DNA of 10,048 nucleotides, taken from contig JBHLPR010000069.1 in NCBI GenBank assembly GCA_048939245.1, positions 1,653-11,700 on the forward strand, written 5' to 3'. This stretch comes from Promethearchaeota archaeon. GTDB lineage: Archaea > Asgardarchaeota > Hermodarchaeia > Hermodarchaeales > Hermodarchaeaceae. Shown one piece after another: positions 1 through 10,048 of this stretch; within the stretch, counting starts at the first letter, position 1, and every line of letters begins with the position of its first letter. Made by a program: the position numbers and the translations under genes. The notes beneath the pieces are model-generated. The model did not search any database and was not told the origin of the DNA. It was given only the letters and a program-made list of their open reading frames with translations.

Positions 1-31
1 AGAGGAGAACATTCGACCAGAGGTAATTAAC

Positions 32-1129
32 ATGGTTCGGGTAATTGGTATTGATCCTGGAACGCGTTCTTTCGATTTTTGTGGATTAGAAGATGGTGAA
101 GTTTTTCTTCAGACCTCAATTACTAGCGTGGAAGTGGCGGATAATCCCCAAAGTATACTTGATGTGATCACCAAGGCACGAAATATCGATTTAGTAGCAG
201 GGCCTTCAGGATACGGTCTTCCCCTGCTTCCCGCCTCGAAGGTTACTGAAAAAGAATTTTTCCAACTTGTGCTAGTCCGCCACGATGATGATAAAATTCC
301 TGTTTTAGAAGCCATCAAAGATATGGTGCGATTAGTTCAGCAAACCGATATCAACATGCTGTTTATCCCGGGAATAATTCATCTGCATTCGGTACCTGCC
401 TGGCGAAAACACAACCGTATAGATCTCGGAACTGCGGATAAACTCTGTTGTGCGATTCTGGGCGTATATGACCAAGCAGGTCGATTGAAAATTCCTTACC
501 AGGAAACAGCATTTGTACTAGTTGAATTGGGCTATGGATATCCAGCAGCCGTCGCTGTTGAGAATGGATTAATCGTGGATGGAGTAGGTGGGACCATTGG
601 TGGTCCAGGGTTTCTCACCCTTGGAGGAATGGATGGAGAACTAGCGTATCTTCTTCGGGGTTTCTCGAAAGGCACCCTATTCCAAGGAGGCGTTTTATCA
701 GCCCTTGATGATCCAAACCTAAGTCCTGAAGCTTTTGCAGAAATTGTCAAGGAAGGTGATAAAAAAGCTCAGGAAGCATGGAATGCCGTTGCGGAAGGAC
801 TCACCAAATCTGTCGCCGCACTAACAATCTCTGTAAAAGAACCACGAGAGATTCTTCTTTCTGGTCGATTAACACGAGTTCCCTTTCTGGTACAAGATCT
901 GACTCACCGAATGGAGCAATTTGGTATTCCCGTGACACGGGTACAACGGTTGGGGCAGCAGTCAAAAGAAGCAGCTCAGGGAGCCGCACTCTTTGCAGAG
1001 GGCTTAGCTGGCGGTCCCGCAGAAACGCTGGTTAAAACAATGCGACTCAAAGAATGCAGTGGAACAGTCCTTGATTGGATAAGTCTCCCTCAAGCGCAAC
1101 AAATCCGGAATATGTACAAAGAAGCCTAA
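32..1129 (+). CDS. DUF1464 family protein (predicted butyrate/acetate kinase-like, ASKHA fold)
   Basis: 365 aa. N-terminal ASKHA phosphate-1-like motif VIGIDPGT, plus GPSGYG, NRIDLGTADK, IVDGVGG, GMDGELAY, LSGR and KEAAQGAA..A.GLAGG, which I recognise as typical of archaeal DUF1464. SD-like GAGGT at 20-24, 7 nt before the ATG. Confidence 0.85.
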   Translation: MVRVIGIDPGTRSFDFCGLEDGEVFLQTSITSVEVADNPQSILDVITKARNIDLVAGPSGYGLPLLPASKVTEKEFFQLVLVRHDDDKIPVLEAIKDMVRLVQQTDINMLFIPGIIHLHSVPAWRKHNRIDLGTADKLCCAILGVYDQAGRLKIPYQETAFVLVELGYGYPAAVAVENGLIVDGVGGTIGGPGFLTLGGMDGELAYLLRGFSKGTLFQGGVLSALDDPNLSPEAFAEIVKEGDKKAQEAWNAVAEGLTKSVAALTISVKEPREILLSGRLTRVPFLVQDLTHRMEQFGIPVTRVQRLGQQSKEAAQGAALFAEGLAGGPAETLVKTMRLKECSGTVLDWISLPQAQQIRNMYKEA

Positions 1130-2121
1130 TCCATAGTAATTCTTGCACCAGAATTATTCACTGCAGAAACGAATACAAGCCCACCAATACCTGCATCTAA
1201 TACTTCCAAGGCTGCTTGTTTCACTTCTGCAGCCTCCTTTGCCCCACGAACAAGTCCGTAACAGGTTGGTCCCCAAGAACTTTGACCTGCTCCTTTTGCA
1301 CCTGCATCAAGCATTGCTTTCACACAGTCATTGACCTCGGGAAAAGCAAATCTACCTCCCTGTGCTGAAGTAAAGGCGTCTCCAACCAGAATTTGAATTT
1401 GCGTTAAAGCCTCTCCAAATCGATCAATTTCATCATTGACCAGAGCCGGAACAAGTTTCATCAACACTAACCGACTTACCATTCCAGCTGATTCAGGACT
1501 AGCGGATGGGAGTTCAAGAAATGCCCGCGCTTCACGAACCCCACTTAGACCCTGAGCCACATTTGGGATAGCTACTACAAAGTTCCAGTCCGTTGGGACA
1601 TCATGGCGGATGATAAGTGGTGGAACTCGTTCAGGTTGCTTATACAATTGGGTAGATATCTTTCCACCGTCTACTACAAACCCACCTGAAGTAAATGTTG
1701 CAGTTCCCACTCCGGAAATAACTCCACGTTCCAGAATTTCTGCGAGAGTACGTGGATTAGTTTCTTTACCGATCAATTTTGTAATGCCTGTACCTATCGC
1801 AAGTCCCAATTGAGTACCCGAACCTAACCCAACATGTTCAGGGATAATTTCCCAGACCGTAACCAGTACTCCATGCGAAACCTCAAAATGTGAAAGGAAG
1901 CGTTTAGCTATTGGATAAACACGTTCTTTGTGTTCTCCGGAAACCGTGATTTCCGAGTTTTGGTGGGTCACTTCAACAACGCAAAGTGGTTGTTCTAATG
2001 AAACACCTAGCGATCCATATTTGCGCCCTAGCCCGCCGTGTAAGTCAATGAACCCCAGATGAAGTCTTGCACTGGCGCGAACCATGACTTTAGCAACAGT
2101 AGGGGATGACATAATGTTCAC
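1126..2121 (-). CDS. mptG: beta-ribofuranosylaminobenzene 5'-phosphate (RFAP/RFHP) synthase, GHMP kinase superfamily
   Basis: Family motifs ARLHLGFIDLHGGLGRKYGSLG, IPEHVGLGSGTQL (GHMP P-loop-like), SGVGTATF..GGFVVDGG and GQSSWGPT. GTG start at 2121 overlaps the upstream stop (GTGA). Alternative ATG at 2112. Confidence 0.93.
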   Translation of the reverse strand: MNIMSSPTVAKVMVRASARLHLGFIDLHGGLGRKYGSLGVSLEQPLCVVEVTHQNSEITVSGEHKERVYPIAKRFLSHFEVSHGVLVTVWEIIPEHVGLGSGTQLGLAIGTGITKLIGKETNPRTLAEILERGVISGVGTATFTSGGFVVDGGKISTQLYKQPERVPPLIIRHDVPTDWNFVVAIPNVAQGLSGVREARAFLELPSASPESAGMVSRLVLMKLVPALVNDEIDRFGEALTQIQILVGDAFTSAQGGRFAFPEVNDCVKAMLDAGAKGAGQSSWGPTCYGLVRGAKEAAEVKQAALEVLDAGIGGLVFVSAVNNSGARITMD

Positions 2122-2792
2122 TTAATCCATTTAGGGAGCAATGATCGTATTCGACGAATAACCTCAGCAGATGGAGATTTTGGAGCGATTCTTTCGACAA
2201 GCTCATGAAGCTGATCAATCTGAAGAGCTAAGCCTTTGGCTCTATTCTGGTCGTTTTTATATAATGCCCGGATTTTTGTGGCATGAATTACAGATTCAAT
2301 AGCAGCACTCCGGCTCCGAGAATACACTAAAGGTGTCTGTGTTAGGAAATCTATGTACTTAACCTCACATAGGAATTCTTTGAACAGATGCATTGATTCA
2401 CCTTTTTTTTCCAGAGTCACTGTTACTTCAAGAACTCCATCCACCCCACGGATTCTTGGTGCGTTAACCACTTTCGATGGTTCAAAGACAACCGCCTCTA
2501 CATCGGAAAGCTCCTGCTTGAATGCCATGGCCAAGAATAACTCGGGATTTTGCGTCAGATTGATCACTGCGTCTGGATTATTTTCGAGATTAAGCGCGGT
2601 TTGAGTTTCTTGGTAAGGTCTGATGAATAGACGGGATCCTTTACCCACCCATACACCCATTGGTGCTGCGTTTGGTTGTTCCTGTTTTGAGAGGGTGCTC
2701 AAAATGGTTTCAACAATCTCGCCTTCAACAAACCCTATTTGGGAAAGCGTCATAGCAAAATCAGAGATGCGAACACCACCACGAAGTTGCAC
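2118..2792 (-). CDS. DUF447 family protein (flavin-binding split-barrel-like, associated with methanopterin clusters)
   Basis: Motifs ETILST..PNAAPMGV, RPYQETQTALNL, AVINLT and a helical C-terminal part SRSAAIESVIHATK. Start uncertain: GTG 2792 or ATG 2753 (MTLSQIGF). Its stop overlaps the mptG start. Confidence 0.85.
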   Translation of the reverse strand: MQLRGGVRISDFAMTLSQIGFVEGEIVETILSTLSKQEQPNAAPMGVWVGKGSRLFIRPYQETQTALNLENNPDAVINLTQNPELFLAMAFKQELSDVEAVVFEPSKVVNAPRIRGVDGVLEVTVTLEKKGESMHLFKEFLCEVKYIDFLTQTPLVYSRSRSAAIESVIHATKIRALYKNDQNRAKGLALQIDQLHELVERIAPKSPSAEVIRRIRSLLPKWIK

Positions 2793-2815
2793 CTATACAC
2801 AAACCTGTAATTCTA

Positions 2816-2832
2816 ACCTTAATGTCTTTTCT
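2816..2832 (-). promoter_or_regulatory. putative BRE/TATA for the DUF447-mptG operon
   Basis: Minus-strand AGAAAAGACATTAAGG about 25-40 nt upstream of GTG 2792. Weak match. Confidence 0.35.
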
Positions 2833-2855
2833 AAACAAGAACACAGTATGTTACC

Positions 2856-2861
2856 AAAAAA
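2856..2861 (-). terminator. possible archaeal oligo-T terminator after the orphan gene
   Basis: T6 on the minus strand, 11 nt after the stop at 2873. Confidence 0.4.
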
Positions 2862-2872
2862 GTCGAGACTGA

Positions 2873-3244
2873 TTAACTTCGAGAAAGCATGGGATTTTCG
2901 ATTGGCCAACCAATTGCATTCAACGCATGTCGCGCTATGTCACGAATGGTTTCCCAAGTAGCATCGGTTTTTAATGTCTCTTCCATCCAATACCGAGTAT
3001 TTTCCGGACCACTGATTTCATCAAGCTTGTGGTTCAAATCTTCTAACAGTTTACGAGCTTTTTGAGGAAAAAAGGCACGCCGTTGCTTCATGACTTGGTA
3101 CCACTGATCAAATTCTATTGCCAATTCATCAACCTTCCAATCAAATCCTGGAAAGAGTTGAAGCTGCACTTCAGCTGGTGCAGCTAAAGCTTGAAGAGAC
3201 CACCGAAAGCGTATCATCGTATAATCCACGAGACCTGCCTCCAC
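2873..3244 (-). CDS. small all-helical hypothetical protein
   Basis: 123 aa (114 aa from ATG 3217) with amphipathic helical pattern (WSLQALAAPAEVQLQLFP, DELAIEFDQW, WETIRDIARHALNAIGWP). It fills the gap between real genes and is followed by a T6 tract on the minus strand. No function recognised. Confidence 0.7.
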   Translation of the reverse strand: MEAGLVDYTMIRFRWSLQALAAPAEVQLQLFPGFDWKVDELAIEFDQWYQVMKQRRAFFPQKARKLLEDLNHKLDEISGPENTRYWMEETLKTDATWETIRDIARHALNAIGWPIENPMLSRS

Positions 3245-3454
3245 CGTCGCATGAATATTAGATTCGGAACTTTATCTAGCCCAATGAATCGTCCGTCGCG
3301 AACAAAGTATTGAGGCAAATCTTCCTTATTACCATAGTGGTAACGAATCTGTCGATTCTTTATTTGACTGTGTGCAAAAACGTACACTATAGCGTATTGA
3401 TACTTCAAAAACTGCTAAGCGTTTTTAACCTCAACTTCAAGTGCATTTTTTTCA

Positions 3455-3479
3455 GAAACTATTAATGAAATCTTTAATT
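3455..3479 (+). promoter_or_regulatory. putative tandem BRE/TATA elements for the mptA-mptE-DHPS-like operon
   Basis: GAAACTATTAAT directly followed by GAAATCTTTAAT: purine-rich BRE-like segment plus AT-rich box, 50-75 nt upstream of ATG 3531. Confidence 0.5.
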
Positions 3480-3530
3480 CAGTAAAAGCTATAGGGTCAC
3501 ATAGACCCCAGTGTGTGGAGCCAATCACTT

Positions 3531-4484
3531 ATGCCCGCTCGAGATGTGCACAAAGACAAACCAGATGTTCAAGTTTCTGTTCGCCGCGTTGGTGTTACAG
3601 GTATCAGGGTTCCAATCCAATTCATCTTTTTTGAAGAACAGCCGGCCATAGTCGTTCCTACCTTTGATGTCTATGTAGATTTACCCGCCTATCAAAAAGG
3701 CATCCACCCTTCCCGAAGTTACGAAGCCACCGTCGAAATCGTTAGCAAACACGCCGAAAAACTCCACCGCCTTGAAGACCTTTGTGTCGACATTGCTCAG
3801 GAACAATTGCTACGTCATGATTACGCTACCGAAGCCGAAGTCCATGCCGCAGCGGATGTAGTATATGCCCGAACCACCCCTAAAACGGCTATACGGACCT
3901 ATGAGTCGTGCACAATGAAGGCCAAAGCCATCGCGATTAGAACTGCCAAAGGGCAAATTCAATTTCGTAAATGGATTGGTGTCACAGTGTCTGGCATCAC
4001 AGCATGTCCTTGTGCTCAAGAAATGCTCCGAGATGGTGTTGAGTCAGAACTTGCAAAGGAACACAGACTCGATTCAATACAGGCTAAACAAATTGTAAAG
4101 AACCTACCGATTGGCAGTCATATGCAACGGAGCTTTGGATCCATCATGGTAGAGATTCCACCAAAATTCCAGGTTGATGCTCTACAGCTGGTGGGTATTG
4201 TAGAAAATGCAATGAGTGCAAGTTCCTTTGAATTATTGAAACGCCTAGATGAAGTTAGTGTGGTTCAAACCGCTTTGGAAAATCCAAAATTTGTAGAAGA
4301 TGCAATCCGCCAATTAGTGAAAAATGTGGTGGAAGCATTTCCCACCCTCCCCGATGAAATGGAACTTGCCTTTGAACAACGAAATGAAGAATGTATTCAT
4401 CGTCATGACTTGGTTGCACAACAGGTCATTACAATGGGAGAAGCCCGACAGCAAATCAATGAAAATGGCAACAATTCTTCTTAG
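3531..4484 (+). CDS. mptA: GTP cyclohydrolase IV MptA (FolE2 / GCH-IB family)
   Basis: Motifs RVGVTGIRVP, VDLP..QKGIHPSR, G.TACPCAQ, SHMQRS, LLKR.DE, NPKFVED and NEECIHRHD. ATG 3531 preferred over GTG 3513 because SD-like GTGGAG lies at 3515-3520. Confidence 0.93.
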   Translation: MPARDVHKDKPDVQVSVRRVGVTGIRVPIQFIFFEEQPAIVVPTFDVYVDLPAYQKGIHPSRSYEATVEIVSKHAEKLHRLEDLCVDIAQEQLLRHDYATEAEVHAAADVVYARTTPKTAIRTYESCTMKAKAIAIRTAKGQIQFRKWIGVTVSGITACPCAQEMLRDGVESELAKEHRLDSIQAKQIVKNLPIGSHMQRSFGSIMVEIPPKFQVDALQLVGIVENAMSASSFELLKRLDEVSVVQTALENPKFVEDAIRQLVKNVVEAFPTLPDEMELAFEQRNEECIHRHDLVAQQVITMGEARQQINENGNNSS

Positions 4485-4522
4485 GGAACAAACTTTTGGG
4501 ATACTCCTCTATAGGAGTTGTG

Positions 4523-5326
4523 GTGTTCGTTTTGAGCCCCATCAATTTGAAAGAATGGTGGCCACGTTATAGTGCCATCGTCGACCAATTCGGGTATAAC
4601 ATGAAAACTGATCAGGAAGCAACTGACCTGCTTAGTGGGTACATCAAAAACGTAGCTATGCCCCTTAGTGAGGCGCAAGATCGAATCGAGGGAAAAAATG
4701 TTCTAGTATGTGGAGCTGGACCATCCATTCTTGATAATTTGGTTGATATCAAAGATTATGGATTGTTAGATGACACGGCAGTCTTTGCAGCTGATGGAGC
4801 GACAACCGCCTGCATGGAGAAAGATATTGTACCGGATTTCGTAATCACAGATCTTGATGGGCGCATGAAAGATATTGTTGCAGCCCAGAAACAAGGGGCA
4901 ATCGTGGTAGTCCATGCTCATGGGGATAATATTCCCAGCTTGAATAACTGGATTCCCCGATTATTGGAAGGCCGAGCCTTGATTGGTTCAACTCAAATAC
5001 GACCCCGACCCGATGTCCATAACTTGGGCGGATTCACCGATGGTGATCGATGTGTATTCTGGGCAGAAGGGCTTCGAGCTGCAACAATCGCGATGGCGGG
5101 AATGGATTTGGGGAATATAATTGGACGTTATTCGAAACCCGAATTAACTCAAGATGTGTTAGCGAGCCCGGAGAAACGGCAAAAGCTTTTGGTTGCCAAG
5201 GAATTATTAGCATGGCTGGCTACTTGGAGCATTAGTACATTATTCAACTTGACCGGCATCTATGCGACCATCCCCGGTATTCCTAATAGAGAAATCTCCA
5301 AGTTTATCTGGGGTAAGGGTAAATAA
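4523..5326 (+). CDS. mptE: 6-hydroxymethyl-7,8-dihydropterin pyrophosphokinase MptE (DUF115 family)
   Basis: Motifs W.P.Y..I...FGY, VCGAGPS, AADGA, PDFVITDLDG, VVHAHGDN, GSTQ, NLGGFTDGDR, AGMD and K..KL..A. The ORF track starts at TTG 4496, but GTG 4523 (SD AGGAG 4513-4517) or TTG 4532 is more likely. Confidence 0.93.
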   Translation: MFVLSPINLKEWWPRYSAIVDQFGYNMKTDQEATDLLSGYIKNVAMPLSEAQDRIEGKNVLVCGAGPSILDNLVDIKDYGLLDDTAVFAADGATTACMEKDIVPDFVITDLDGRMKDIVAAQKQGAIVVVHAHGDNIPSLNNWIPRLLEGRALIGSTQIRPRPDVHNLGGFTDGDRCVFWAEGLRAATIAMAGMDLGNIIGRYSKPELTQDVLASPEKRQKLLVAKELLAWLATWSISTLFNLTGIYATIPGIPNREISKFIWGKGK

Positions 5327-5355
5327 CCCCAATCCAGTTAAGAGGTTCATTTGTA

Positions 5356-6954
5356 ATGAAGATTTTACTTGTAACAGGCAGTTTAGAAGCACCTCATCTG
5401 CGCAAGGTTATTGAAGAGAATCCTTCGTCCTATTCCTTTGATATCCTTGAGTTACCATTGGCCGTTGCGGCGTTTCTCCATCCGAAATATGTGGCTTCTC
5501 AGATCAGACTCCGTGGACCTTTAGAGAAATATGATCTGATTATTCTCCCCGGTATGGTATCCGGCGATGCCAGCATCGTAAGTGACAGTTTAGGTGTTCC
5601 AACATTCAAAGGAACTCGTCATGCAGCAGATTTACCGATTCTTTTTGACATTCTAGCTGATGCGGAGAATCACCTTTCGACAACTCAGCCTGCAGATTTG
5701 GTTTTAGATGAACAACTCAGGAAAAAAGCACAACGTGATTTGGCTAGGTCAAAAAAATTACTGAAAGGAAAATTGCCCAAGGGTTACTTGAAACTGAGAA
5801 GAGGAAGAGAGAGCCTGATTATTGGGCCAAGGTTACCCATGCGGATTATTGCTGAAATCACAGATGCACCAACGCGTACAGAGCAGGAGCTTCTTCGAAT
5901 CGGTCGTCACTTTCTCGCTAGCGGTGCGGACATCATTGATGTTGGCATGGTAGCTGGAGCACCAGAACCAAAGGCAGCAAAAGAAATTGTTAGATTGATG
6001 CGAAAGGAGTTGTCAGCTTTCATTAGCATCGATTCTCTCAACGCTGAAGAGATTGAAGCAGGACTTGAGGGAGGTGCACAGCTAGTGTTGAGTCTGGATC
6101 AGGATAACATGATAGACATTGAGAAGAAATATCGTAAACAGGCGATTTTCACCGTTATTCCAGCTACCAAACAGGGTGCTGAACTGCCTAAGACTGTTGA
6201 AGAGCGTGTTGAGCTTCTCGTTGATAATCTTTCCAATGCCCGAAGCTTGGGCTACAAGAAACTTATTGCTGACCCCCTTTGTGATCCCCTAATTAATCCA
6301 GGACTAACAAAGGCCATTCAAGCGTATGCAAAATTTAGTCATCAACAACCAGATGTTCTACTGCTAATGGGAATTGGAAATATCACTGAATTATTAGATG
6401 CGGACAGTCCAGGAGTCAATGCCCTACTTGCGGGTCTAGCAACAGAACTCAAAGTATCTTTACTCCTTACAACCGAGGTTAGCCCCAAGACGAAAGGATC
6501 CGTTTGGGAGGTCCACAAAGCTGCCCAAATGATGCATCTTGCCCGTCGACGACGAGCAACTCCGAAAGATTTGGGAGTTGACCTCCTCCTTTTAAAACCT
6601 AAACGATTTCCCGAACAACCCTATCAGCCAATCCAAAGCGCTGAGCATCCCCACATCAAAGCGTCTCAGGAACCCAGTACGCATCGTTTGGACAGAGCCG
6701 GATTTTTTACTTTTCATGTTGACAGAGAGCGCTATTTACTAATCGCACGTCATTTCACAGCAGAAAACCGAGACACCCCTTCACTCGAAATTGAGGGTTC
6801 AACGGCACAGCAACTTATTGACACTATAGTGAAACAAGAGCTGGTTAACGAATTAGATCATGCTGCATATATTGGACGAGAATTAACCAGAGCTGAACTC
6901 GCTTTAATTACTGGTCGACCCTATATCCAGGAAGGACCACTCTTTGGGAGATAA
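5356..6954 (+). CDS. archaeal dihydropteroate synthase-like protein (MJ0107/Orf20 type: N-terminal domain + pterin-binding TIM barrel + C-terminal DUF4346)
   Basis: MKILLVTG..., PGMVSGD, KGTRHAADLP; barrel motifs AEITDAP, GADIIDVG, SIDSL, ADP, GNITELLDADSPGVNALL, TTEVS.K..GSV.E, PKDLGVDLL; C-terminal LDRAGFF...DHAAYIGRELTRAELAL..GRPYIQE. SD GAGGT at 5342-5346. Confidence 0.9.
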   Translation: MKILLVTGSLEAPHLRKVIEENPSSYSFDILELPLAVAAFLHPKYVASQIRLRGPLEKYDLIILPGMVSGDASIVSDSLGVPTFKGTRHAADLPILFDILADAENHLSTTQPADLVLDEQLRKKAQRDLARSKKLLKGKLPKGYLKLRRGRESLIIGPRLPMRIIAEITDAPTRTEQELLRIGRHFLASGADIIDVGMVAGAPEPKAAKEIVRLMRKELSAFISIDSLNAEEIEAGLEGGAQLVLSLDQDNMIDIEKKYRKQAIFTVIPATKQGAELPKTVEERVELLVDNLSNARSLGYKKLIADPLCDPLINPGLTKAIQAYAKFSHQQPDVLLLMGIGNITELLDADSPGVNALLAGLATELKVSLLLTTEVSPKTKGSVWEVHKAAQMMHLARRRRATPKDLGVDLLLLKPKRFPEQPYQPIQSAEHPHIKASQEPSTHRLDRAGFFTFHVDRERYLLIARHFTAENRDTPSLEIEGSTAQQLIDTIVKQELVNELDHAAYIGRELTRAELALITGRPYIQEGPLFGR

Positions 6955-7017: not shown

Positions 7018-7119
7018 TTATTTTGCTGTTCCGCGACGTTTCATTAGCAAGTATATGACAATGATGACCACAATGATGATGACGCCAGCGACTACAGCGA
7101 TCCACCACCACCATGGAAG
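7018..7119 (-). repeat. conserved C-terminal anchor-coding segment, copy 1 (paired with 9555-9656)
   Basis: Encodes LPWWWWIAVVAGVIIIVVIIVIYLLMKRRGTAK*; 27/33 aa identical to copy 2. Confidence 0.9.
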
Positions 7120-9342
7120 CAAGATTGGAGGGAGTAATGGTGGATTATCAAAGGTGAAAACTCCATCTGATTCATCTTCTACAATGAAGATTCCGTCATA
7201 GGCCGTGATGCGGATGCGGTAATTGGATCCATTGGGCCAAGCTATTGTATCCAGAAGATAGCTTGCACTTGTTAGACCTGTTGCTAGTGTGTTCCAATTG
7301 CTGCCGTCCCAAATGTCTACATCAAAGGTTAAGGTGTCATCGTTTGGATCGGAAGCAGCCCATGTGACCGTAATTGTACCGTTGAGTGTTTCTCCACCAT
7401 TTGGAGATATCACTGTGATCGTGGGTGGTTGTCGAATAAGGTTCGTAGCAACGGTGTTAACCTCATAGTTAGGATTTACAAAGTATAAGAGAACTCCTGT
7501 TTCTTTTTCGAAGTAGCTATAAGTTGGCGTCGAACCATCGAGCCAAGTCACATTCCAGCAGTCATAGGAATAACCATTAACCCAGGTATGCATCACTTCA
7601 CCAACGACAATTCCATACTCACTCCACATAGGGACTGCTGATCCGATTGTAAGTCCAGAATCAGGGATCATGATTATGAAATGGTTTAGAACCCACCAGC
7701 TTGTTCCTGACTGCAAGTAGCGTGTGTTGGTTAGAAGACTAAACCAGTATAAATCGTCGTCGTAGAGTGTATCATTTGAATAAAACCGTTGGACGCTATT
7801 AGTAATGTTGATTCTCCAATCATCCAAATAAGATTCACAAGTGAAGTTGAACTCGTAGTAATTTCCAACCGTAGTTTCCCAATGGGTATCGATATAATCA
7901 TTGGGTTGCAAGTGTACTTGTTGATGTGGAATATAGCGAATGAGATTTTCAAGGAACATACTAGTATTATGGGTTCGCCACCAAGCCCATTCTACGGTTT
8001 GAGCAGTTGCTAGGATAAATCCGTTACCACTAGCATTTTCATAAAAGACTGGTTCGGTACCATCATCTAAGATAATTCGTCCGCCAGTAGTTTGATTGAA
8101 ATAGCCATGGCTTGACCAGCCCCAATATTCGAATTCCGGTTCCTGAACCAGATAAGGATGGTATAGGGTGGGATGGAACGCATCAATTATGTCAATGCTA
8201 TCTGCGAGATTGTAGTTGAAACCAGCGCCAAAAGGAAGAATCCAATCATGGCTTTGTGTTGCTGCATGAATCTCTAAGATTCCTCCACCATTCACATAGG
8301 CTTCTAGCAAAGCTCGATGAGTAGTTAGCGCGGTGTAGAAGGCTACTGGTTGCGAAGAGGAGATGATTACTTTTTGGTAGGGAGAGAGATCTGCGGTTCC
8401 AAGGTCTGTCGAATTGATGATATCAAAAGGGATGCCCAGATCTATGAGGATTTGCTGAGTCGCATTGTAGCCCCAAGGATTGATATTTTCTAGAATCGCC
8501 ACCGGACCCGTTAGGGCTTCATCTGGAGGGCTTTCATGTGTTGGTACATACCAGACTAGATTCTCAAGGAAGTCGCTATAACCATTCGCAGAGATAAATT
8601 CAACGGTCTGGGTTGTGATGATGAAATAGCCCAACCCATAACGGGCTTCAATCAAGACTGGTTCGCCAGCACCATCAGTAATGATAACCGAAGCCTCCGC
8701 TGTTTTGTTGAGGTATCCGTGGGCTGAATAGGTCCAGCCATCAAGTTCGGTCTCATTAGCCTCAAAGGGATTGTGGAGAAGATAATGCCCAAGATCTGCA
8801 AACTCAATGTTCTTTGTTAAATTCACAGTGTAGCCAAAACCACCTGGAAGGAAGTAACTCCCTTGTGAAGAGGATCTGGCCGCATGGATTTCTAAGACGC
8901 CACCACCTTTGACATAATTTTCAAGCCAGCTTCTGTATGATTCAACAGCTGTATAGAAAGAAGCACTCTGTTGCGATGAGATAATGACTTTCTGGTACTT
9001 GCCAAGGGCAATGCCAAAGGACGCAGACGGGATAGTATCTACAACCATATGAGAATATGTAAGGAGAATAGTTTCCGCATCATTATATCCCCAAGGATCG
9101 GCGTCTTCGAGGATAGCCACTTCACCCGTAGCTTTGAGCCCACGTGATGATAGTGGCATAGTAGGCGTTGGAGTGGATTCTGGTATCATGGGAGGTTTAT
9201 TGTCAACAACTAATGTATCCATTGGGGTACTATATCCAGCTGTGTTTAATCCAACCATTGAACCGAGGATAGGAAAAAGTAGGATAATCAACAAAAATGA
9301 AGATAGCACCCTGGTTCGAATAGGAAATTTGGTAGTAAACAT
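7018..9342 (-). CDS. secreted, C-terminally membrane-anchored surface glycoprotein with two tandem class I glutamine amidotransferase-like (ThuA-like) domains and an Ig-like domain
   Basis: 774 aa. N-terminal signal peptide (basic KFPIRTR, then FLLIILLFPILG), two ~195-aa repeats, an Ig-like segment (PTITVISPNGGE..VTW.ASDP..YRIRITAYDG), 14 N-x-S/T sequons counted by eye, and a C-terminal TM helix followed by KRR. Confidence 0.8.
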   Translation of the reverse strand: MFTTKFPIRTRVLSSFLLIILLFPILGSMVGLNTAGYSTPMDTLVVDNKPPMIPESTPTPTMPLSSRGLKATGEVAILEDADPWGYNDAETILLTYSHMVVDTIPSASFGIALGKYQKVIISSQQSASFYTAVESYRSWLENYVKGGGVLEIHAARSSSQGSYFLPGGFGYTVNLTKNIEFADLGHYLLHNPFEANETELDGWTYSAHGYLNKTAEASVIITDGAGEPVLIEARYGLGYFIITTQTVEFISANGYSDFLENLVWYVPTHESPPDEALTGPVAILENINPWGYNATQQILIDLGIPFDIINSTDLGTADLSPYQKVIISSSQPVAFYTALTTHRALLEAYVNGGGILEIHAATQSHDWILPFGAGFNYNLADSIDIIDAFHPTLYHPYLVQEPEFEYWGWSSHGYFNQTTGGRIILDDGTEPVFYENASGNGFILATAQTVEWAWWRTHNTSMFLENLIRYIPHQQVHLQPNDYIDTHWETTVGNYYEFNFTCESYLDDWRINITNSVQRFYSNDTLYDDDLYWFSLLTNTRYLQSGTSWWVLNHFIIMIPDSGLTIGSAVPMWSEYGIVVGEVMHTWVNGYSYDCWNVTWLDGSTPTYSYFEKETGVLLYFVNPNYEVNTVATNLIRQPPTITVISPNGGETLNGTITVTWAASDPNDDTLTFDVDIWDGSNWNTLATGLTSASYLLDTIAWPNGSNYRIRITAYDGIFIVEDESDGVFTFDNPPLLPPILLPWWWWIAVVAGVIIIVVIIVIYLLMKRRGTAK
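7927..9129 (-). repeat. intragenic tandem domain duplication (8542-9129 and 7927-8511)
   Basis: The two copies (196 and 195 aa) share TG.VAILE...PWGYN, YQKVIISS.Q, YV.GGG.LEIHAA, S.HGY.N.T, QTVE and FLENL..Y.P. Confidence 0.92.
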
Positions 9343-9373
9343 CGATATTCCCTACCGATAGTAGGCACTAAGC

Positions 9374-9385
9374 GTTTAAAAATCT
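9374..9385 (-). promoter_or_regulatory. putative TATA box of the 774-aa surface protein gene
   Basis: Minus-strand TTTTTAAA (9375-9382), 33-40 nt upstream of ATG 9342. Confidence 0.5.
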
Positions 9386-9512
9386 ACATGGATTCAATAT
9401 CATCATATAATGTGAACCTATATTGGTTACGAACTTACGAAAGGGGAAATAGCCCTCGGTACCTGACGCTCCTATTTCCAAGAGATGCCACTCTTTCACT
9501 GTAAGGGATACC

Positions 9513-9547
9513 AAAAAAATGAGAGGTGTGGAGGAAACCCCTCCACA
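9513..9547 (-). terminator. hairpin + oligo-T terminator of the truncated surface-protein gene
   Basis: Minus strand after the stop: 7 nt, TGTGGAGG-ggttt-CCTCCACA (9527-9547), 7 nt, then T7 (9513-9519). Confidence 0.75.
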
Positions 9548-9554
9548 TTGTGTT

Positions 9555-9656
9555 CTATTTGTTTGCTCCACGTCGTTTCATTACCAAGTAGATGATAATA
9601 ATTACGACAATAATGATGACCACGGCTAATACTGCGATCCACCACCACCAGGGTAG
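9555..9656 (-). repeat. conserved C-terminal anchor-coding segment, copy 2 (paired with 7018-7119)
   Basis: Encodes LPWWWWIAVLAVVIIIVVIIIIYLVMKRRGANK*. Confidence 0.9.
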
Positions 9657-10048
9657 CCCTGGAATGGGTGGAGGTGTGAATGGTGAAGGTATGCCTTCGA
9701 TGTCAGCGGTTGCAGTTGGAGTCGAGTACATGGTTCCGGGTAATCCATAGTAGTCGGCATCAAAGGAGAGCGTGAAATTACCGACACCCTCAACCAAGAC
9801 TTGCCAGTTGATGACCTCTGTATGCCCAGGAAGAACAAAGAATGGTTGAGTTGCCGGTCCGGTTAGACTACCAAATCCAGGAGGAACGGTAACAGTAATT
9901 TGCCCTTCAACCGCGGCGGTTAATCCGAGGTTATCGATTTCCACAGCAAAGTTCACTGGAAACCCTAAGGTTCCATTCATAGGAACGATGGGCAGAAGGT
10001 TACAGCGTGGGGCCATTATGAAAGCAATTTCGTTAATCCAGAGTTCAA
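9555..10048 (-). CDS. C-terminal part of a membrane-anchored surface protein (CARDB/NEW3-like Ig domain + LPWWWW anchor); 5'-truncated by the window edge
   Basis: The frame stays open past ATG 10016 to the window edge (..ELWINEIAFIMAPR). Beta-sandwich pattern V.IDNLG..A....ITVTVPPG...V.PG....INW.V...G.FT. Same C-terminal tail as 7018-9342. Confidence 0.8.
   Translation of the reverse strand, partial: ELWINEIAFIMAPRCNLLPIVPMNGTLGFPVNFAVEIDNLGLTAAVEGQITVTVPPGFGSLTGPATQPFFVLPGHTEVINWQVLVEGVGNFTLSFDADYYGLPGTMYSTPTATADIEGIPSPFTPPPIPGLPWWWWIAVLAVVIIIVVIIIIYLVMKRRGANK

Follow-up and report, generated by a model that had tools for sequence, protein, structure and literature searches.

A PWWWW tail at the C-termini of surface proteins in one Hermodarchaeal genus: retained anchoring cassette or sorting signal?

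What does a nearly identical C-terminal tail signify when it closes two neighbouring surface proteins that otherwise look unlike each other? The question was raised by a stretch of 10,048 nucleotides (hereafter the window) from a Promethearchaeota archaeon of the Hermodarchaeales, which corresponds to positions 1653-11700 of contig C87 in the source genome (G000), a metagenome-assembled genome of 2.5 Mb in 122 contigs that is 88% complete. Two genes on the minus strand encode protein A, an open reading frame of 774 aa (7018-9342), and protein B, of which the C-terminal 163 aa lie in the window (9555-10046, with the 5' end open at the contig end). At the end of both proteins, a Pro-rich linker is followed by LPWWWW, an Ile/Val-rich helix, Tyr-Leu and KRRGxxK. 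In the initial annotation, which was made from the letters of the window, this tail was proposed to be a new archaeal sorting signal, "PWWWW-CTERM", belonging to a lineage-specific anchoring or processing system. Asgard archaea have unusually many single-pass surface proteins, and the anchoring of these proteins bears on the origin of eukaryote-like cell surfaces. Our analysis confirmed the observation and supported the interpretation in part. The PWWWW tail is a real, unnamed, genus-confined C-terminal homology domain, and the question becomes whether it is kept as an anchor or removed as a signal.

The tail of A comprises 33 codons on the minus strand (7021-7119, with the stop codon at 7018-7020) and reads LPWWWW, a 20-residue Ile/Val helix ending in Tyr-Leu-Leu-Met, and KRRGTAK. 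The tail of B has the same length (9558-9656, minus strand, with the stop codon at 9555-9557) and reads LPWWWW, a 20-residue Ile/Val helix and KRRGANK. The reported identity of 27 of the last 33 residues, without gaps, was reproduced when the alignment was recomputed. Over the 33 codons, the DNA carried 13.0 synonymous and 8.0 non-synonymous changes (Nei-Gojobori), which corresponded to a proportion of synonymous differences (pS) of 0.56, a synonymous divergence (dS) of ~1.0, a non-synonymous divergence (dN) of 0.11 and an omega of ~0.11. Synonymous sites are saturated, and an omega this low at a dS of ~1 indicated purifying selection on the tail peptide and ruled out a fresh copy, as had been argued before. 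Within the helix, 16 of 20 positions were identical between A and B, compared with 5.1 +/- 1.8 (maximum 13) in 20,000 composition-preserving shuffles, and the other Ile/Val-rich tails of the genome had a mean identity of just 22%. Composition does not account for the match. Moreover, WWWW occurred three times among the six-frame open reading frames of at least 40 aa in the source genome, always within this tail.

As an anchor control, we collected about 97 open reading frames of at least 150 aa in the source genome that end in a helix and a basic cluster, and these gave 81 homologous pairs. The plain anchors in these pairs were 9-39% identical over the last 33 residues, with an exception of 64% in one pair that is 68% identical, whereas the ectodomains were 21-68% identical (21-52% without the one close pair). 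Unrelated anchor pairs had a mean identity of 17% over the same length and a 99th percentile of 36%. The standouts were the PWWWW tails, at 61-82%, and the tails of the Loki-CTERM class, at 30-55% with one pair at 94%. Plain anchors in this genome diverge much faster than their own ectodomains, and the earlier statement that such anchors are rarely conserved to this degree was borne out. This set also provides a useful baseline for judging claims of a conserved tail in the same genome.

A profile built from three tails recognized only A, B and a third protein, C, in the source genome, at 69-86 bits, with the next match at 18 bits. On these scores, the PWWWW tail appears as a discrete homology class. 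Protein C has 881 aa and was found by the genome scan on another contig (G000:C41:10174-12816, minus strand; L015), so the tail is not confined to the two genes of the window. We then defined a canonical copy as one scoring at least 55 bits with a ten-tail profile. Within one Hermodarchaeal genus, 9 of the 15 genomes had canonical copies, at one to three per genome as assembled, and all of these copies lay at the extreme C-terminus of long open reading frames. The ten-tail profile found none in the sister genus, nor in any of the 84 other genera sampled by 400 Asgard genomes. A DHPS-like marker splits the genus into two clades; the canonical set consists of all of clade I plus one genome of clade II (G012), and decayed tail forms were seen in G011 and G013. 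Among 1.84 billion cluster representatives, 21 matched at E <= 1e-3, comprising about ten relatives of A, B and C, one LVIVD-propeller protein (P0010), and otherwise unrelated proteins. The unrelated proteins carried (G)LPWWWW, a helix and RRR followed by 20-100 more residues; since the segment is internal there, it cannot be a C-terminal signal in them. An exact scan for LPWWWWI in the genomes of 185,579 species confirmed five loci, two of them in Hermod-type records; of the three bacterial loci, one lay no more than 30 residues from the C-terminus and two were internal. The many signal-peptide-bearing carriers that the initial annotation would have taken as support did not appear: there were three in the source genome, and the carriers belonged to one genus. 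As it stands, the tail is a narrow genus-level feature of uncultured organisms.

The carriers were compared after removal of their tails. Protein A (orthologues P0001 and P0002), with weak Big_7 and anthranilate-synthase-II matches, consists of a hydrophobic, signal-like segment at the N-terminus, a pair of internal repeats (weak GATase1-like match), an Ig-like domain (7156-7434, minus strand; weak Pfam Big_7 match), a Pro-rich stalk, DNPPLLPPIL, between this domain and the tail (7120-7155, minus strand), and the PWWWW tail. In A and C, the signal-like segment was identified by visual inspection. An AlphaFold2 model of the A ectodomain from a 4-row alignment had a mean pLDDT of 33 and gave no usable fold. 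In protein B, a beta-sandwich domain of the NEW3/CARDB-like kind was weakly called (9795-9965, minus strand; Pfam NPCBM_assoc E 0.049, below the cut-off) in a region that is conserved among B orthologues, and the Pro-rich stalk ends in PPPIPG (9657-9689, minus strand). Gene B is truncated by the end of contig C87 at contig position 11700. The N-terminal two thirds of B lie on contig C28 (67007-68923), in a piece with 60% identity to residues 34-680 of a full-length orthologue, and the two contigs abut inside gene B. Full-length B orthologues have 863-928 aa, and one of them had a Pfam DUF4350 match below the cut-off (22 bits versus 30.4). Orthologues of B were found only in the nine genomes with canonical tails, plus a fragment in the sister genus. 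Protein C passed the DUF4350 cut-off, whereas the B orthologue scanned did not. Protein C also matched ABC_transp_aux, with the IFT52 GIFT domain just below the cut-off (24.8 versus 27.2 bits), and GIFT-type domains on an Asgard surface protein may merit structural attention.

All strong matches among the tail-free proteins fell into three orthologue groups, the A, B and C types. The B-type and C-type proteins (the latter 876-942 aa) matched each other with E values of 1e-5 to 1e-12 and 22-28% identity over 190-500 residues, and judged from these alignments they are distant paralogues. A and C have the Ig-like domain in common, at 43% identity (E 8e-17, blastp) and with an hhalign probability of 99% (E 9e-19). 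Between A and the B family, hhalign returned nothing significant, and no likeness beyond the tail was seen; the initial statement that A and B are dissimilar elsewhere was judged on only 130 residues of B because its gene is cut by the contig end. The kinship of B and C and the domain that joins A and C do not favour the initial interpretation. The tail is nevertheless carried by more than one kind of ectodomain, as had been claimed. In addition, a B-type paralogue within a 1924-aa protein of the source genome bears a different anchor.

The physical character of the tail was then compared with that of other anchors of the source genome. In PWWWW tails, 23-24 residues form the uncharged span, of which 7% are small and 58% are Ile/Val, and KRR or RRR and an end of 7-8 residues follow. 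The 12 IPG[FY]P (Loki-CTERM) tails have a span of 16-18 residues with 39% small residues and 35% Ile/Val, and the 82 other anchors have a mean span of 21 residues, with at least 55% Ile/Val in 17 of the 82. The PWWWW helix physically resembles the plain anchors of this genome and not its Loki-CTERM signals, which counts against the sorting-signal architecture proposed earlier. The motif was also labile. An A orthologue that is 92% identical reads GWW instead of WWWW, and other orthologues read WWW, WLW, SPWLW or FPWLL, with the helix kept in every case. A four-Trp interface motif as a fixed signal was thus not supported. The features of a type I stop-transfer anchor were present, namely the N-terminal segment seen in A and C, and a single hydrophobic span at the C-terminus that reaches at least 20 residues and is followed by positive charges.

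Taken together, we incline, at slightly better than even confidence, to the reading that the PWWWW tail is a type I anchoring cassette, retained in the mature protein, with a sequence-specific role for its helix. The N-terminal signal segment would send a glycoprotein-like ectodomain across the membrane, the Trp/Ile/Val span of 23-24 residues would stop the transfer, and the KRRG cluster would secure the cytoplasmic position of the C-terminus. At the outer membrane interface, below the rigid Pro-rich stalk, the run of four Trp residues may act as an aromatic collar. Conservation of PWWWW tails extends over the whole helix, beyond the boundary motif; purifying selection on all of the helix and not on the motif alone argues for a probable sequence-specific membrane contact, which would be either self-association or contact with a shared partner. 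Duplication and module shuffling probably carried the cassette to a few surface proteins encoded in a variable gene island. Several observations weigh against this reading. Genuine sorting signals are likewise conserved between proteins that cannot be aligned elsewhere, and the sole other tail class of the source genome that is conserved in this manner is Loki-CTERM. The heptapeptide LPWWWWI is the most invariant single stretch among canonical copies. Finally, the source genome has two apparently intact archaeosortase-family genes, yet only one obvious signal class.

These points lead to the alternative in which PWWWW is indeed a new sorting signal that is recognized at LPWWWW, cut and replaced by a covalent anchor, an explanation that we consider possible and rather doubtful. 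As in the substrates of exosortases and archaeosortases, every canonical copy has a motif, a helix and a basic cluster at the extreme C-terminus, under strong purifying selection and with conservation far above that of plain anchors. The ectodomains of the carriers differ and include an LVIVD-propeller homologue whose relatives have Loki-CTERM at the same place; however, the carriers are few (two or three per genome) and partly related to each other, with B and C as distant paralogues, one domain common to A and C, and the metagenomic LVIVD protein as a further carrier. The retention of IPGLP in B also favours a signal, whereas the alteration of the motif between 92%-identical orthologues and a helix that exceeds those of the real signals of the genome by 6 residues, with a far higher hydrophobicity, speak against it.

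The enzyme for such a signal would most plausibly be the second of two archaeosortase-family proteins that match TIGR04178, Art1 (211 aa; G000:C46:39474-40106, minus strand; L016) and Art2 (233 aa; G000:C85:2708-3406, minus strand; L017). Family scans of the window itself found no processing enzyme, in agreement with the initial annotation, and Pfam Exosortase_EpsH had no match in the source genome. In both proteins, putative catalytic Cys, Arg and His positions are visible, and both fall below the cut-off of every named subtype, the best being heimdallarchaeosortase at 56 bits versus 130; the ArtA model (TIGR04125) gave 36 bits versus a cut-off of 75, or no match. Art2, a divergent paralogue, is flanked by pyrK-like and pyrF/pyrE-like genes; of the 41 relatives searched, only those of this family had it. 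Its distance from the A/B island is 10-19 kb where contigs permit. That PWWWW is the substrate signal of this orphan paralogue, as a second, private archaeosortase/signal pair of Hermod-type Asgard archaea derived from Loki-CTERM, seems to us unlikely, and if the tail is processed, it would supply that paralogue with a substrate. Art1 is present in 13 of 15 genomes of the genus and 4 of 4 of the sister genus, and Art2 in at least 13 members of the genus regardless of the tail, five of which (G002, G005, G006, G011 and G013) lack canonical copies. Both paralogues are present in all tail-bearing genomes and also in tail-less relatives. Co-variation of Art2 with the tail was considered and rejected: the Art2 identity classes (67-72% versus 46-56%) coincide with the clades of the DHPS-like marker (73-76% versus 61-65%), so they reflect the species split and not co-evolution. 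The 10-14 kb that separate Art2 from the DHPS-like gene are occupied by housekeeping genes of pterin and pyrimidine metabolism, and genomes that lack the island proteins show this spacing too. A rhomboid encoded 6 kb from C (C41:3552-4253) was also rejected as a partner (33 bits versus the rhombosortase cut-off of 84), and no open reading frame of rhomboid size was found in the 11-kb C-type locus of G011. Profiling of archaeosortases, rhomboids and sortases yielded no enzyme that co-varies with the tail, and the dedicated processing system was not supported. No archaeosortase paralogue or neighbouring gene was seen to track the tail beyond phylogeny.

At the other extreme, the tail might be an ordinary anchor without any special role, with the likeness arising from descent of paralogues and gene conversion between neighbours. 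The B and C ectodomains and the Ig-like domain of A and C fit this explanation, and tandem paralogues in G012 (L019:1571-7114) and G011 (L020:4070-9830) have tails that are 97% identical on ectodomains that are 53-58% identical. Towards the 3' end, the DNA of the G012 pair is 89-97% identical in patches, and the 3' ends of tandem paralogues may have been homogenised by gene conversion. Tails of A-type orthologues were no better kept than their ectodomains (39-69% versus 63-71%), and those of B-type orthologues moderately better (53-81% versus 43-65%). Recent gene conversion does not explain A and B, because their tails differ at 13 synonymous positions and a dS of ~1 excludes recent conversion between them. 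Across species, the tails mostly group by orthologue type, indicating long vertical retention, and in the source genome the plain anchors of paralogous proteins have changed far more quickly than the ectodomains that they hold. We therefore regard an anchor without special function as improbable and the least likely of the three explanations, and continue to favour a retained anchoring cassette.

Where might such a cassette have come from? The end of the B stalk equals the start of the lineage's Loki-CTERM motif with Leu replacing Phe: B reads PPPIPG-L-P where Loki tails read PPPIPG-F-P, and some Loki tails continue as IPGFPW. The resemblance to IPG[FY]-type tails noted in the initial annotation was thus well founded, and those tails are the NCBIfam Loki-CTERM class. 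In hhalign, LP of LPWWWW was placed on FP of IPGFP with a probability of 93% over just 11 Pro-rich columns, so that the junction of stalk and motif, in A as well, falls on PPPIPGFP of the Loki-CTERM tails. LVIVD-propeller homologues carry Loki-CTERM in G000 (C105:10818-13613) and G010 (L021:712-3525), a generic Ile/Val helix in G005 (L033) and G013 (L046), and PWWWW in P0010. From these comparisons, the cassette most likely descends from a Loki-CTERM tail in which Gly-Phe was lost and the helix was lengthened and hardened. The LVIVD-propeller proteins also form, in their own right, a natural "choice-of-anchor" series across organisms. The presumed cleaved Loki-CTERM tails and the probably retained descendant anchor offer a within-genome contrast that is useful for studying archaeosortase recognition.

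The genomic setting of the two genes was also examined. The remainder of the window holds a pterin/methanopterin-type biosynthesis cluster (1-6954, by profile matches) with DUF1464, GHMP-kinase-like, DUF447, GCHY-1 (MptA-type), MptE-like and pterin-binding DHPS-like genes, the last encoding a DUF6513 + pterin-binding + DUF4346 protein. An open reading frame of 123 aa at 2873-3244 (minus strand) had no family match. Genes A and B are convergent to this cluster and belong to a variable surface-protein island adjoining the DHPS-like gene, whose content and order vary by species (A-B; LVIVD-B-A; B alone; two B copies). The island is usually flanked by genes for two multi-pass membrane proteins, paralogues of ~443 and ~406 aa (L018:7399-8727 and 8715-9932; G000:C28:63798-66139), that are kept in 19 of 19 genomes of the family. 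The 443-aa neighbour was rejected as a tail-specific partner, since a core gene present in all genomes of the family is not tail-specific. None of the genes conserved next to B, which encode proteins of 195-261, 443 and 406 aa, had a Pfam or NCBIfam family match.

How, finally, does the tail compare with known systems? A Pfam/NCBIfam scan of the tails that included all CTERM models at E <= 10 gave nothing near a cut-off, consistent with the earlier placement of the tail outside named families; RIFIN, FtsX, DUF4381, GG_III-CTERM (E 1.1) and PACE-CTERM (E 2.2) were far below their cut-offs and were dismissed as noise. Since current CTERM models miss the tail, a small profile could be added to annotation resources. 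We searched the literature on Loki-CTERM, heimdallarchaeosortase and Asgard archaeosortases and found no paper on such tails. The closest class is Loki-CTERM of Asgard archaea, the presumed target of archaeosortase H-type enzymes. Its surface proteins in the source genome have an invariant IPG[FY]P, a Gly/Ala-rich helix and RRR (for example, C105:13479-13613, C82:16619-16753 and C104:4983-5117; L052-L064). Both kinds of tail belong to the same lineage and take the same place on surface proteins, where a Pro-rich stalk leads to a boundary motif with Pro, a single helix, and Arg/Lys residues clustered 5-8 positions before the end. However, the boundary I-P-G-F/Y-P is replaced by ILLP in A and PPLP in C, with IPGLP kept by B alone; Gly-Phe is absent from the A and C types, and the PWWWW helix is longer, has fewer small residues and is conserved throughout, not at the motif alone. 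The A and B tails were absent from the hmmscan matches to the Loki-CTERM model (NF033507, cut-off 19.9 bits) even at E <= 10, and a genome scan at E <= 1 listed no PWWWW tail. The same genome scan placed 11 other tails above the cut-off, compared with 12 by motif, and a control IPGFP tail from a relative scored 29.9 bits.

Other signals were more distant. PGF-CTERM, the substrate of archaeosortase A in Haloferax volcanii, is similar in its tripartite C-terminus on secreted glycoprotein-like cargo, and the source genome holds archaeosortase-family genes; PWWWW tails differ in having no PGF motif, and TIGR04126 matched neither the tails nor anything else in the source genome. LPXTG (TIGR01167) was not among the tail matches, and Pfam Sortase reached at best 13 bits in the source genome (cut-off 26.6). 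The tails likewise differ from GlyGly-CTERM, the rhombosortase signal, in having no GG motif. Among choice-of-anchor families, TIGR04312 (choice-of-anchor B) was weakly matched by the LVIVD-propeller homologues (31 bits versus a cut-off of 100), whereas A, B and C are not members. Ordinary single-pass proteins have interfacial aromatic belts, such as a Trp-rich membrane-proximal region before the transmembrane helix. The PWWWW tail resembles these belts in that its Trp cluster sits exactly where a long hydrophobic helix meets the outer face, with positive charges on the inner side, and nearly identical segments of LPWWWW, helix and RRR are found in unrelated proteins that run on for 20-130 residues; it differs from the belts in being a homologous, selected cassette of several proteins in one genus and not a case of sporadic convergence.

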